A DNA stretch of 49,568 bases from NCBI GenBank assembly GCA_003252515.1, contig QKDR01000143.1, positions 1 through 49,568 of the forward strand, written 5' to 3'. This document shows positions 5,230 to 27,361 of this stretch, in pieces. The DNA comes from Candidatus Delongbacteria bacterium (GTDB taxonomy: Bacteria > UBA4055). Both the position numbers and the translations under genes were made by a program. Numbering within the stretch: position 1 is the first letter of the stretch; the number at the start of each line of letters is the position of its first letter. The notes under the pieces were generated by a model. That model did no database searches and was not told the origin of the DNA. It was given only the letters and a program-made list of their open reading frames with translations.

Positions 5230-5853
5230 CTAGATCACCTCGAATTTCTTTTTAATGATCTCAACAGTTTCTTTATCTGAAGATCTTAGTATTCTTATTT
5301 TTTGTATATCACAATATAACTCTACGATCGTAGAGGACTTACTGCCTCCCGTTTTACCTCTGTATATATGGTCAACAGATTTGTCCCATCTTGAAATTAT
5401 CATTTCGATATCATTAAGATCGGGTTCGCCGGAAATATTAACGCTGGTACTTATTATACCTGTTCCCAATGCCATTGTGATATCACGTACTACACCAAAA
5501 TCCGTATATCTTACTGCAACTTTTTTATAATCTGATAAGAACTTGTATCCTGAAGAAGGATTTTTATCCGAAACAACAGTAATTCTGCCGGGCCACAACT
5601 CTTCTTTCAGCAGGTATTCCGTGAATGAAATCAAGAAATCGTTAAAATCAAAATACAGTTTCAGTCTTTCGGGAGATGAATCAAGTATTATAAACGGTTT
5701 CTGATCTCTTTTTTTTAGTTCCTGAAGCCTTTTGACTGCATCTTTATTGCGGGGGTCGCACGAGAGTCCAAAAATGGTATCGGTAGGTATAATTACTATA
5801 CCTCCGTTCTTAATGGTCTGAATTGCGGTATGAAGCTCATTTTTGTCTTTCAT
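5230..5853 (-). CDS. tsaC: L-threonylcarbamoyladenylate synthase (Sua5/YrdC/TsaC family)
   Basis: GGIVIIPTDTIFGL, KKR...KP, WPG, STSVNISG, SSTIV motifs. Confidence 0.9.
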   Translation of the reverse strand: MKDKNELHTAIQTIKNGGIVIIPTDTIFGLSCDPRNKDAVKRLQELKKRDQKPFIILDSSPERLKLYFDFNDFLISFTEYLLKEELWPGRITVVSDKNPSSGYKFLSDYKKVAVRYTDFGVVRDITMALGTGIISTSVNISGEPDLNDIEMIISRWDKSVDHIYRGKTGGSKSSTIVELYCDIQKIRILRSSDKETVEIIKKKFEVI

Positions 5854-17454: not shown

Positions 17455-17527
17455 GCTCCCGTAGCTCAGTGGATAGAGCAGTGGTTTCCTAAACCATTGG
17501 TCGGAGGTTCAACTCCTCTCGGGAGTA
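17455..17527 (+). tRNA. tRNA-Arg (anticodon CCT), CCA not encoded
   Basis: Cloverleaf: acceptor GCTCCCG/CGGGAGT, D arm GCTC/GAGC, anticodon arm GTGGT-TTCCTAA-ACCAT, T arm GGAGG-TTCAACT-CCTCT. Confidence 0.96.
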
Positions 17528-17581
17528 CAAAACGAGCGAGGGAGTAAACCTTGTAAAGGCAACTCCTCTCGGGAGTACAAA
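17510..17581 (+). repeat. 22-bp direct repeat of the tRNA-Arg 3' end
   Basis: CAACTCCTCTCGGGAGTACAAA at 17510-17531 and 17560-17581. Confidence 0.95.
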
Positions 17582-24311: not shown

Positions 24312-24507
24312 ATATGTTATTTTACTTATTTTTTCAGCGTTATATTATAAATCTCCTGAATGAGAAAGTTCAATAATAAAAAATTAATCCGACTTATGCA
24401 AATAAAATGCACTGAATTTTATGAGAATTTTTTATGATATATTTCATTTCTTTTAAGAATATGTTTGCTTATAATTAATAAAATTGAAAAAGTGGAGAAA
24501 ACTGTAA

Positions 24508-26043
24508 GTGAAAACTATATTAAAAGTGGTATTATTAACAGGATTGTTAGGTAATTATATTTGGGGAACGACGATTGACGATCCTGTCGGAATAGGCAGG
24601 ATAAGTTTTTTGTCCGCAGAATGGGATAATGCCTACAATATTGATATATCAAGAAATACGATCTCAGAACATATTTCAAGAAACGAAGCTACGGTCCTTT
24701 TTATGTTCTATGCATGTATGTCCTGAACAGGATTAGCGATACTGCCGGAGGCAGTCAATCTTCAGAAGGCATTAAGATCGCAAAAAAACAACCTCCAGTA
24801 TTTCACTGTTGGAGGTTCTACAAATATTTCACGATACGAAGAGCTGCTTGAATTTAAGATCATTAATGACCTCTATTTCCCTTTATCAACTTTTTTTGAA
24901 CTCGGATACCTTTATACAGATTATTTCCCGAATACATTCACTTTCATTGGTAAATACAATCATATAATCGGCACTCTGGATGCGGACGCGTCAGTTGAAG
25001 ACATCGAGATAATGCTGAACAGAACTGCCTGTACTTTCAATGATATTTATGCCTTGAAATTCAATGACAGGCTATTACTTACCGACACAACAGAAACGAT
25101 CAATCTGAACGAAATATTTTATATCGGAGATATATCGAATGTTGAGTTTCAGATCAAGGAACAGGATAATCTGATTCCTGTTGTATCAGAGATAGATGGC
25201 AGTAAGCTTATTTTAAATAAAACTGACTTTCCGGGTTACGCCAGACTTAAAATTATAGCCAAACCTAAAGATAAGAAATATTATTGCCAGTTCGACCTTG
25301 AGATAATTAATCCGGGGTCTATGTATGAAGATTTTGAATATTCTGATTTCAGCGAATCATCTTTACCGTGGATAAACGATCAGCGCGAGCCCTGGTATGT
25401 AACAAACGAAGCTTCTTATCTCGGATCTTCATCATTACGGTCAGGAAATATCCTGCCCGGTCAATCATCTTCTGTCGGCTTTGATCTTGATCTGAAAGAG
25501 CCCGGCACTTTAGTTTTTGCTTATAAAACATCTACTAGACCTTATTTTGACAGGCTGATATTTTCAATAGACGGGCTGATTATTTCGGATCTTGAAAGTC
25601 CGTATCTCTGGTCTGACATGAACGATTGGAGAGTTCTTTCTTACAGCATACGTGCGGGAGAAAGATCAATAAAATGGGAATATAAAAAAGATGTTTATGA
25701 CCCGATGAATGAAGATGCTGTATGGATTGATGCTGTAGTAATACCTGATAAATTTAATAAGAACAGTATCTCAGCTGTTAACGACAAATCTTTATTATAT
25801 GCGCATCCGAACCCGTTCAATCCTGTTACGGAGATCACATTTGAGCTGCCTGACAAAATCCATTCTGAACTTATAATCTTTGATTCAAAGGGAAGAGAGG
25901 TCGAAAAATTATTTAGCGGAGACCTTGAGAAGGGTAAATATAATTTCAGCTTTAACGGAAGCAGATATTCAAGCGGTTTATATTATTCCGTCTTAAAATA
26001 CGGGAACAAAGTTCTGACGAATAAATTAATTCTGACTAAATAG
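24508..26043 (+). CDS. Predicted exported selenoprotein: signal peptide, thioredoxin-like CxxU domain, beta-sandwich domains, T9SS-type C-terminal sorting domain (511 aa, Sec73)
   Basis: ORFs 24508-24726 and 25012-26043 share a frame. The only stop is TGA 24724-24726 in C-M-S-U. The 95 codons between are open (TGLAILPEAVNLQKAL...YFPNTFTFIGK). A SECIS-like hairpin follows; the tail reads YAHPNPFNPVTEITFELP...SGLYY...KLILTK. Confidence 0.8.
24729..24762 (+). promoter_or_regulatory. Candidate bacterial SECIS element
   Basis: Lower stem AGGATT/AATCTT, upper stem ACTGCC/GGCAGT, apical loop GGA starting 21 nt after the TGA. Confidence 0.75.
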
Positions 26044-27361
26044 ATTTCATCAGATAATCATTAAAGTTCTTCCCTAATTCCGTATACAGATCATACAGCT
26101 TTTTAACACTTGCCTTTTCCACCCACTCATCCGCTCTATGTGAATTCCATCCTACAGGACCGCAGATGATAACAGGGATTTCAGGATTATAACGTCTGAA
26201 CACATTCTCATCCGCAACTGAATATCCCATATTATAGTTTCTGAATCTTCCGACCTTGTTGACACATTCTCTTACATAATTTGTAAACCGATCGTTCGAA
26301 GGTGTAAGATATGCTTCGCTGTAAGGTGTCGGTCTGTCCTTTAATCTAATACCTGCTTTCTTTACATTGCCTTCGATAGTCACCGGTTTCAGAATTTTCT
26401 TTTTATACAATCCGGCAATAAAATGTTTTAGAGTTCCCCTCAGTTTTCCAATATTCGTTAGTGGTGTAAAAGTACAGTCTATTACGATTCTTCCCGATGA
26501 CGGTATGGAAAGGCTTTCGTTACCGCAGTCAATTTTAGAGATGAACATGGATCCTTCAATCTCGTCGACAGCAAATTTATCAGGAACTTCTTCTGAATTG
26601 AATCTGAAAACATCTCTATAGTCTTTCCTGAACTTCTCGAACTCAACGCAGAATTTCGAAGCCTCAACTGCGGCATTAATAAAAGTCGGGTGTCCTGAAA
26701 TGGCTCCGTGCCCGCCCGTTCCGAAGAAATCCAGCTCGAACTCACAGCGTCCCAATCTTCCTATTCCTATTGTACCGTATCCGTAGAATTTATTGGGACC
26801 GTCCCCGATCTCAGGAACTACGACCGCTTTAACATCATCCATAAATGTGTTTTGTGCCAAAACGTTAGCACCTAGAGAATAAAATTCCTCATCTGCTCCG
26901 AATGCCACTTTGATCTTATAGCCTACAGGATCAATATTTTTAAAAGCCGTACTGATGACAGCAAGACCCGCCTTCATATCGTTTGACCCAAGACCCAAAA
27001 TGACCTCCCTGTTCTTACCCTGAAAATTTACTTTACCGGCCTTTGGGGTAAGAGCGCTTTTCTTTGACTTCCATGGTTGTGACGATACTGTATCGGAATG
27101 TCCGTAAAAAAGTATTGAATTATCACCCGATCCTTTCTCTCCAAGTATATTATAGTACTTCTTACCGTTTAGATCTTCGTGAACGAATTGTTTCTCTACT
27201 TTAAATCCTGCTTCTTTCAGCTTTTGAGATAAGATATTATTGATCTTCGTTTCATTTCCTGAGAGATAATATTTTCTATTCTTCTTACCTATCTTGAACG
27301 GATTTCTGGAATCTGTCTTGATAAGCTCCTCTAGCACTTCTATAACTTCATTTCCGGCCAT
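26036..27361 (-). CDS. M20 family metallopeptidase/deacylase (ArgE/DapE-like)
   Basis: GHSDTV, GLGSNDMKAG, DEE, PE, HRADE metal-binding motifs. Confidence 0.88.
   Translation of the reverse strand: MAGNEVIEVLEELIKTDSRNPFKIGKKNRKYYLSGNETKINNILSQKLKEAGFKVEKQFVHEDLNGKKYYNILGEKGSGDNSILFYGHSDTVSSQPWKSKKSALTPKAGKVNFQGKNREVILGLGSNDMKAGLAVISTAFKNIDPVGYKIKVAFGADEEFYSLGANVLAQNTFMDDVKAVVVPEIGDGPNKFYGYGTIGIGRLGRCEFELDFFGTGGHGAISGHPTFINAAVEASKFCVEFEKFRKDYRDVFRFNSEEVPDKFAVDEIEGSMFISKIDCGNESLSIPSSGRIVIDCTFTPLTNIGKLRGTLKHFIAGLYKKKILKPVTIEGNVKKAGIRLKDRPTPYSEAYLTPSNDRFTNYVRECVNKVGRFRNYNMGYSVADENVFRRYNPEIPVIICGPVGWNSHRADEWVEKASVKKLYDLYTELGKNFNDYLMKSI

Follow-up and report, generated by a model that had tools for sequence, protein, structure and literature searches.

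A probable selenoprotein gene of Candidatus Delongbacteria encoding a thioredoxin-like domain and a type IX secretion tail

The window considered here is a stretch of 49,568 nucleotides (nt) from Candidatus Delongbacteria bacterium (contig QKDR01000143.1 of assembly GCA_003252515.1, forward strand), and our subject is a single reading frame of 511 codons on its forward strand, at 24508-26043, whose sole break is a TGA at codon 73 (24724-24726). This codon probably specifies selenocysteine (Sec, U). The frame is made up of two open reading frames (ORFs), one of 72 residues (24508-24726, with a GTG start) and one of 343 residues (25012-26043, with an ATG start), which lie in the same frame at an offset of 504 nt, and the 95 codons between the TGA and the second ORF (24727-25011) contain no stop and no start codon. 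The surroundings of codon 73 read ...VLFMFYACMS-TGA-TGLAILPEA, and the read-through product has 511 residues and ends at a stop at 26041-26043. With the GTG taken as Met, its N-terminus is MKTILKVVLLTGLLGNYIWG, and its C-terminal tail reads HPNPFNP...SGLYY...KLILTK. A preliminary description of this locus had listed the two ORFs in one frame, the lone TGA, the 95 open codons and the product of 511 residues, all of which match the sequence. The features of the locus are as follows.

24494-24497, forward strand: possible ribosome-binding site GGAG, 10 nt 5′ of the GTG start, from a reading of the sequence.
24508-26043, forward strand: predicted complete selenoprotein gene, 511 codons plus stop, with UGA-73 taken as Sec; its orthologs can be aligned over the full length, signal peptide to final residue, and the ratio of nonsynonymous to synonymous differences (pN/pS) is below 1 on both flanks of the UGA.
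24508-24567, forward strand: putative signal peptide, residues 1-20, with a Lys-containing start and a hydrophobic core, without a lipobox Cys; judged by eye.
24589-25041, forward strand: TlpA/ResA-like thioredoxin-fold domain, about residues 28-178, predicted from a profile search of the PDB, an AlphaFold2 (AF2) model and Foldseek.
24715-24717, forward strand: codon TGT of Cys70, which likely pairs with Sec73 in a CxxU motif; Cys in 10 of the 11 aligned group A sequences (groups as defined below).
24724-24726, forward strand: UGA codon 73, predicted to be read as Sec; kept in 12/12 orthologs and 57/58 copies of the domain, with Sec machinery in the genome.
24741-24755, forward strand: hairpin ACUGCC-GGA-GGCAGU, 6 bp with a GGA loop, resembling a selenocysteine insertion sequence (SECIS), from covariation, invariant synonymous sites and an apex like that of selD.
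25045-25311, forward strand: predicted beta-sandwich domain of the Ig-like type (about residues 180-268), which AF2 models as all-beta at a block-mean predicted local distance difference test (pLDDT) of about 88-93.
25321-25752, forward strand: predicted Trp-rich jelly-roll domain, about residues 272-415, like carbohydrate-binding modules (CBM) or MAM domains in a Foldseek search with the whole model.
25795-26040, forward strand: type A C-terminal sorting domain of a type IX secretion system (T9SS), residues 430-511; PF18962 and TIGR04183 score above their cut-offs at 434-508.

The relatives of this protein speak most directly to the meaning of the TGA. A six-frame search for relatives covered 61 genomes and returned, among the matches listed, 12 full-length relatives at 35-52% identity and a further 10 at 22-29%. 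All 22 listed matches that reach the N-terminal domain contain exactly one internal TGA, and the listed matches that are free of stops all begin at query residue 122 or later. From 15 genomes we extracted 26 genes, which were sorted into four groups. Group A comprises 12 genes including that of the window and carries the motif xCxxU, except for one tandem paralog with QFCU (L039), which has Gln at the Cys70 column and Cys at position -1. The nine genes of group B have G-U-xx-C, the two of group C have TFS-U-GSMC, and the three of group D have U-xx-C. One group B gene lies in the window's own genome (L044, contig C146:925-2427, forward strand); it encodes about 515 residues with the motif G-U-STC, a retained cis-Pro and a T9SS tail. 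Gene order marks the members of group A as positional orthologs: of 10 loci checked, 9 have a convergent M20 peptidase gene on the downstream side and 5 have purE upstream. All 12 positional orthologs, at 35-52% identity, retain the TGA. A search with the single protein against the genome contigs found only two distant loci, matching residues 240-392, and nothing on the Sec domain.

The pattern was followed further in 16 genomes of the phylum, using a profile built on the N-terminal domain. The profile found 58 copies in 14 of the 16, with one to seven per positive genome, and 57 of the 58 have exactly one TGA. By motif, 43 copies are UxxC, 11 are CxxU, one is CU, two are UxxxC and one is a Cys form; the 31 TGA-bearing copies beyond the extracted genes are all UxxC. 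The sole TGA-free copy (G008:C80:16946-17362; L084, identical to P0087) has the motif WCVPC in an open frame of 717 residues. That 57 of 58 copies share a single TGA at one site of the domain greatly exceeds what chance would give. Family members often stand in tandem, in arrays of three (G009:C50, G012:C355, G003:C19, G011:C74) or of two (G003:C18, G006:C51, G015:C31, G012:C334), which points to recent local duplication.

The contig comes from a metagenome-derived draft genome of 183 contigs, and an assembly or sequencing error might be offered as an explanation for an in-frame TGA. However, this TGA recurs in 11 further orthologs drawn from 11 other genomes (one genome contributes two of the 12 orthologs) and in 45 paralogs, and among the explanations considered here we hold an error to be the most remote.

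A further possibility is that the TGA is a true terminator, separating a gene for a secreted peptide of 72 residues from an independent gene, or marking a pseudogene. Translation table 11 does yield two ORFs, and public gene calls treat the relatives in the same manner: 17 of 17 close database relatives are 343-438 residues long and lack the N-terminus. Among the best 150 profile matches, 15 are proteins of 66-101 residues that end at profile position 48-52, the Sec position being 53, and more than 20 others begin just past it. Two of the short N-terminal fragments were retrieved, and both end in ...ACYS. The expectation of the preliminary description that standard gene callers would split the gene is thus borne out. 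Such annotations lose half of the catalytic domain along with the signal peptide, such that the selenoproteome of the phylum is undercounted. Several points speak against a terminator: 57 of 58 domain copies have kept the TGA in this position, down to about 14-25% identity, the thioredoxin fold spans the TGA, and the downstream ORF would carry a secretion tail without a signal peptide. Moreover, the 95 start-less codons past the TGA appear to be under purifying selection, as does the part before it: in nine pairs, the uncorrected pN/pS ranges from 0.04 to 0.62 before the TGA (mature part) and from 0.09 to 0.41 over the next 95 codons. The two highest values belong to the two most divergent pairs, and the seven closer ones span 0.04-0.18 upstream and 0.09-0.25 after the TGA. 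We therefore regard a terminator at this position as very improbable.

A Sec reading also depends on how the host genome uses TGA and on what it encodes. TGA is a normal stop in this genome. It ends 268 of 1050 long ORFs, and the frame behind it meets the next stop after a median of 7 codons, with 4% of cases running on for at least 100 codons; the corresponding values are 11 codons and 14% after TAA, and 16 codons and 17% after TAG. The preliminary description had made its proposal hinge on Sec machinery, and this is present: selD (356.9 bits), selA (528.4 bits) and selB (380.9 bits) all score above their curated cut-offs, as does tRNA-Sec (56.1 bits against an Rfam gathering score of 47). 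ARAGORN flagged no tRNA-Sec in the genome, which the Rfam model did. Should UGA instead be read as an ordinary residue, through a reassigned code (Trp or Gly) or near-cognate read-through, the frame would be open as well, though it is open under any code in which TGA stands for a residue, and this is no evidence in itself. Such a reading is at odds with the stop statistics, with the lack of any internal stop in selA, selB and SprA, with Cys as the aligned residue of homologs, and with the complete Sec machinery and the SECIS-like hairpins. In our estimation it deserves as little credence as a terminator.

Other TGA-containing genes of the same genome can be set beside the one in the window. 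The selD gene (L001, contig C165:7199-8119, forward strand) is itself a selenoprotein gene with one in-frame TGA. A molybdopterin oxidoreductase gene of the FdhA type (contig C7, reverse strand, first base of the TGA at 5528; L092:8-2710) spans 901 codons from stop to stop, with its in-frame TGA in the context ...HCARL-U-HS and its Pfam domains confirmed. A candidate in-frame TGA is found at 43070 of contig C139 (reverse strand), in the context ...GGTCVF-U-PPD and followed by 153 open codons.

Bacterial SECIS elements are characterized by a short distance from the UGA and a G in the apical loop (bSECISearch literature). The hairpin at 24741-24755, judged by its sequence, would fit both: it begins 14 nt past the UGA, and its GGA loop begins 20 nt past it. 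A possible lower stem (24738-24740 with 24758-24760) is present in the window sequence only. All 14 genes of groups A and C keep the same spacing, and their core GCC-GGA-GGC does not vary. This core encodes Pro-Glu-Ala, and the codons CCG-GAG are used in 14 of 14 genes, against genome frequencies of 0.41 and 0.36. The flanking pairs co-vary (CUG/CAG, CAG/CUG, AUG/CAU, AAG/CUU). Over an 8-pair helix in the 14 sequences, 87.5% of positions are paired, compared with 67.6 +/- 3.3% in shuffles (0 of 500 reach this value), and the covariation score of 0.499 stands against 0.139 in shuffles (reached by 0 of 500) and a maximum of 0.165 with slid partners, although the tool warns that kinship among the sequences inflates such covariation tests. 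Three pairs show between three and six pair types each, with six for pair 24-38.

Hairpins were also seen after other TGAs, those of groups B and D differing from the A/C one. In group B the hairpin is GAGGC-AGUUUC-GCUUC, 15 nt past the UGA in the second member of the window's own genome (L044), and group D as well as the newly retrieved UxxC genes have long stems capped by CGGC-GGC-GCCG. The own-genome selD has ...GUCC-GGA-GGAC..., with its loop 17 nt past the UGA and the same CC-GGA-GG apex as the window gene, while a GGCC-GGUCU-GGCC hairpin follows the TGA of the FdhA-type gene; both thus have GC stems and loops that start with GG, 17-19 nt past their UGAs. When in-frame segments of each gene were ranked by stability, the segment after the UGA was among the most stable 5% in 10 of 12 genes of group A and 2 of 2 of group C, as compared with 1 of 9 in group B and 0 of 3 in group D. 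The ranking thus supports groups A and C but not B or D; the longer hairpins of group D start nearer the UGA and are cut by the fixed segment.

Scans of the genome with such patterns were of limited use. A strict scan for NNNCC-GGA-GGNNN after TGA gave 23 hairpins, of which the one in the window gene alone is flanked by long frames on either side; it misses selD because of a bulge in the selD stem and hence is unfit as a finder of the selenoproteome. A crude scan for TGA, hairpin and nearby Cys gave 58 sites, mostly noise, and recovered the window gene, its paralog on contig C146 and the FdhA-type gene.

As to the protein itself, the preliminary description had seen the order of a thioredoxin/TlpA domain in the N-terminal part, and this agrees with both profile and structure searches. 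A profile search of the PDB matched 2l5o (1.9e-5), 2m72 (2.1e-5) and ResA 4nmu (7.3e-4). AF2 modelled the full-length protein at a pLDDT of 85.6 and a predicted template modelling score (pTM) of 0.65, and the N-terminal domain alone at 89.5 and 0.85. Searched separately with Foldseek, the domain matches ResA (1su9, 2f9s, 1st9), the TlpA-ScoI structure 4txo, DsbF (3ios) and thiol-disulfide oxidoreductases of Bacteroides; peroxiredoxins and glutathione peroxidases are also among its matches, of which 72 reach E<=0.001. Template modelling (TM) scores are 0.5-0.6 when normalised to the query and up to 0.72 when normalised to the target. The models thus support a ResA/TlpA-like thioredoxin fold. 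The matches of the whole model are dominated by beta-sandwiches (TM about 0.2) and are uninformative on the N-terminal domain, which was therefore folded and searched by itself. Thioredoxin-type Pfam matches occur among the 25 members scanned, namely to Redoxin in four, AhpC-TSA in three, Thioredoxin in one and Thioredoxin_8 in one.

Seven proteins of the same layout carry CxxC in place of a Sec motif (CASC, CGPC, CGGC, CTYC, CGPC, CVPC and CMSC). Five of these Cys-form homologs were scanned and all five have a T9SS tail; their matches to Thioredoxin, Redoxin or AhpC-TSA are weak, and one was named 'thiol-disulfide isomerase/thioredoxin' by JGI. Both alignments that we made agree in setting the leading Cys of CxxC, for 7 of 7 Cys forms, opposite the Sec of groups B and D. 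Sec73 of the window protein adjoins an insertion of 4-5 residues that is specific to group A. The window branch is an atypical CxxU variant within a lineage-wide family of secretion-tailed TlpA-like proteins, most probably selenoproteins.

Downstream of the thioredoxin-like domain, no family model matches the Ig-like domain (about residues 180-268). For the jelly-roll, Foldseek with the whole model returned CBM51/INT 7jrm, CBM4 3k4z, MAM-Ig 2c9a and CBM22 4xuo. The T9SS-type tail of the preliminary description was substantiated by two curated models, both above cut-off at residues 434-508 (TIGR04183, 27.5 bits against 23; PF18962, 27.7 bits against 27), and T9SS tail models match 25 of 25 relatives. 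An N-terminus of the signal-peptide type is likewise seen, by eye, in 25 of 25 aligned relatives; in the model of the window protein it forms a low-confidence helix (residues 2-21). SprA is encoded in the genome, above cut-off and in an open frame of 2101 residues, and the genome has many other T9SS-tailed proteins. From the tail and the T9SS machinery, we infer that the 511-residue protein would be displayed on the cell surface. The preliminary description had linked such tails to the FCB group; NCBI lists the lineage label here, Candidatus Delongbacteria, among the 'Bacteria candidate phyla' and not in the FCB group. One family member is labelled Delongbacteria in the database, and so are most named relatives of the window's threonyl-tRNA synthetase at 64-84% identity, while two metagenome-assembled entries at 83-85% carry the label Clostridiales; of the two labels, we consider Delongbacteria the better match for a secretion system of the outer membrane.

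The module that runs from about residue 180 to the C-terminus is not confined to this family. It is also found on cyclophilin-type prolyl isomerases at five loci in related genomes (L051-L055), which are about 510 residues long and have a signal peptide (L051 and L055 were scanned, and L052-L054 look alike), and on proteins of about 1160 residues in the same genomes. The cyclophilins share the Ig-like, jelly-roll and T9SS-tail module, and hence a second kind of folding catalyst appears on the same scaffold.

Taken together, the conserved TGA and its selected flanks, the hairpin covariation, the Sec machinery and the use of TGA as a normal stop speak strongly for the proposal of the preliminary description that this is one gene whose UGA is read as Sec. 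We put the probability that 24508-26043 is a single gene for an exported CxxU ResA/TlpA-like selenoprotein with a T9SS tail, belonging to a family that has expanded in this lineage, at roughly four in five. In this reading, SelB and tRNA-Sec would decode UGA-73 as Sec, guided by the hairpin at 24741-24755. The signal peptide would take the chain across the Sec translocon, and the type A C-terminal domain would then direct it through the T9SS, with SprA as the translocon, to the cell surface or to release. Cys70 and Sec73 may cycle between the selenol/thiol and selenenylsulfide states, such that the catalytic domain would act as an extracytoplasmic oxidoreductase of the thiol/disulfide type, while the Ig-like and jelly-roll domains might serve as a stalk or a binding module.

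A number of observations weigh against this reading. Regarding the active site, the window protein gives no hit to a thioredoxin-family model of Pfam or NCBIfam, with E<=1 as the limit. The modelled position of U73 is a turn, where confidence is lowest for the domain (block pLDDT of 68 in the full-length model and 82 in the domain model), and the helix begins at P80, seven residues later. The LPE helix that the preliminary description had placed after CxxU is indeed found in the model, but there CxxU does not lie at its N-cap. Furthermore, none of the 11 group A and 2 group C sequences has Pro in the cis-Pro column (Asn in the window protein), as opposed to 9 of 9 in group B and 3 of 3 in group D. 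The YFPNTF segment, formerly taken for a cis-Pro loop, does not fill this role, since its P141 is adjacent to the real cis-Pro column, one column off, and is Pro in 1 of 11 group A sequences, the window alone. The alignment of U73 with CxxC depends on the method, MAFFT auto placing it on the second Cys (with C70 on the first) and L-INS-i placing it inside a 4-residue insertion, and no Cys-form ortholog of group A was found. As to the hairpin, its core doubles as code for the conserved Pro-Glu-Ala residues, and two further covariation measures are not significant, namely double-sided pair changes (4, reached in 325 of 500 shuffles) and further pair types (11, reached in 50 of 500). The 86 nt after the UGA fold no more stably than shuffles (z = -0.23), and the fold of this whole segment was accordingly rejected as SECIS evidence, only the local hairpin being informative. 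With respect to secretion, the presence of T9SS genes proposed in the preliminary description was substantiated for SprA but less so for the PorV-like gene, which reaches 206 bits against a cut-off of 250; the PorU-like pieces, at two contig ends, reach 397 and 145 bits against 420. The latter, sortase gene pieces at C8:13780-15669 and C108:32-1354, fall below the cut-off because the gene is split across two contig ends. Lastly, we know of no electron donor beyond the outer membrane.

Alternatively, the protein may be a genuine T9SS selenoprotein whose branch is not a protein-disulfide oxidoreductase, and rather a peroxidase, a handler of polysulfide, elemental sulfur or selenium, or a protein with a Sco-like metal site, acting at the cell surface. 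The cis-Pro column, which is Pro in none of the 11 group A and 2 group C sequences as compared with 12 of 12 in groups B and D, argues in this direction, as do the similar Foldseek scores of ScoI, peroxiredoxins (BcpB, PrxQ, AhpC) and glutathione peroxidases. Also, no reductant relay outside the outer membrane is known to us, which favors substrates that supply their own electrons. Experiments have demonstrated polysulfide reduction by a periplasmic Sec enzyme (PMC13510729). However, the nearest sequence and fold matches are of the ResA/TlpA type, the paralogs retain classic W/G-U-PGC motifs together with cis-Pro, and no peroxidase or Sco signature was identified; of the 25 members, AhpC-TSA or Redoxin matches only 3 and 4, respectively. 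We thus consider such a function unlikely, though clearly more plausible than either a terminator or an ordinary residue at codon 73, and retain the thiol/disulfide-type oxidoreductase as our preferred reading.

Within the window, the neighbours of the gene are housekeeping genes (purE, glycosyltransferases, an M20 peptidase, a major facilitator superfamily (MFS) transporter, FabF, RNase III and threonyl-tRNA synthetase (ThrRS)), and no operon link to them was seen at this locus. The M20 peptidase gene (26036-27361, reverse strand) is convergent, and its 3′ end overlaps that of the selenoprotein gene by 8 nt (26036-26043). A tRNA-Arg (CCT) at 17455-17528 is the only RNA gene that ARAGORN and Rfam find in the window.

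The protein can be compared to several known systems. Sec-containing TlpA-like or thiol-disulfide isomerase-like proteins (cd02966; UxxC, UGC) are listed in selenoproteome reviews (PMC13188914, PMC9312934), and a search of these two texts by term found the words secret*, T9SS, sorting, signal peptide and periplasm absent. Going by the descriptions given there, the likeness lies in a predicted TlpA-type thioredoxin fold with Sec in the redox motif, most paralogs of our family being UxxC, while the window protein differs in its CxxU, its insertion of 4-5 residues, the missing cis-Pro and its multidomain build of 511 residues with Ig-like, jelly-roll and T9SS-tail parts. The best fold and profile matches, ResA, TlpA, DsbE and DsbF (1su9, 4txo, 3ios, 4nmu), are, as predicted for the window protein, extracytoplasmic and have a signal peptide or membrane anchor; these are single-domain proteins of the inner membrane or periplasm with CxxC and cis-Pro, fed by CcdA or DsbD, whereas the window protein has CxxU, lacks cis-Pro along with its branch and carries a tail for outer-membrane secretion. 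With T9SS type A cargo (TIGR04183/PF18962) it shares the sorting domain, a putative signal peptide and SprA in the genome, and it departs from such cargo in being a predicted selenoprotein and in a lineage label that names a candidate phylum outside Bacteroidota.

Several CxxU families are listed in the reviews as well. Among selenoproteins with CxxU in a thioredoxin-like fold, SelW-like PF10262 and Trx7/PDZ NF041199 have been described (PMC13188914), and neither model matches any of the 25 members at E<=0.01. An exported Sec protein does have a precedent in MccSep (ExtKL) of Geobacter sulfurreducens, a periplasmic multiheme selenoprotein that was shown experimentally. MccSep (PMC13510729) resembles the window protein, as predicted, in having Sec and a signal peptide, which in MccSep is cleaved, and in its annotation as two ORFs split at the UGA, and it differs in its pentaheme cytochrome c fold, its periplasmic location and the lack of a secretion tail; it indicates that selenoproteins can cross the Sec translocon. 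Full-text literature searches combining selenoprotein or selenocysteine with type IX secretion, Ignavibacteria and Delongbacteria found no T9SS cargo described as a selenoprotein; 'Delongbacteria' is sparsely treated, with one or two mentions per paper among those listed. Within the reach of these searches, T9SS display of a Sec protein is without precedent. The N-terminal domain of the window protein falls outside every NCBIfam and Pfam model, and neither a family model nor a paper was found for the architecture as a whole, in keeping with the earlier impression that it does not belong to a described family.

To our knowledge, thioredoxin-fold selenoproteins are the commonest kind of selenoprotein, and the known ones reside in the cytoplasm or periplasm. 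With a secretion-tailed family, selenium chemistry would come to be placed at the cell surface, which raises the question which reductant and which substrate are involved. One may go further and propose, tentatively and with the odds somewhat against it, that members of this phylum display up to seven Sec oxidoreductases on or beyond the outer membrane by way of the T9SS, which would be the first selenoproteome outside it. If this were true, the retention of Sec in 57 of 58 copies could be explained by a selenol staying reactive and reversibly oxidisable beyond the reach of a reductant relay, and, together with the T9SS-tailed cyclophilins, these proteins might form an extracellular toolkit for protein folding and redox chemistry, or else a surface system for sulfur or polysulfide. 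Irrespective of this, Sec is constant in 57 of 58 copies while the partner Cys shifts (UxxC, CxxU, CU, UxxxC), which makes the family a test case for the retention of Sec over Cys. The CC-GGA-GG apex that the gene has in common with selD may constitute a lineage-specific SECIS signature, and as such it could be used for the re-annotation of genomes in which selenoproteins of this kind have been cut at their UGA.

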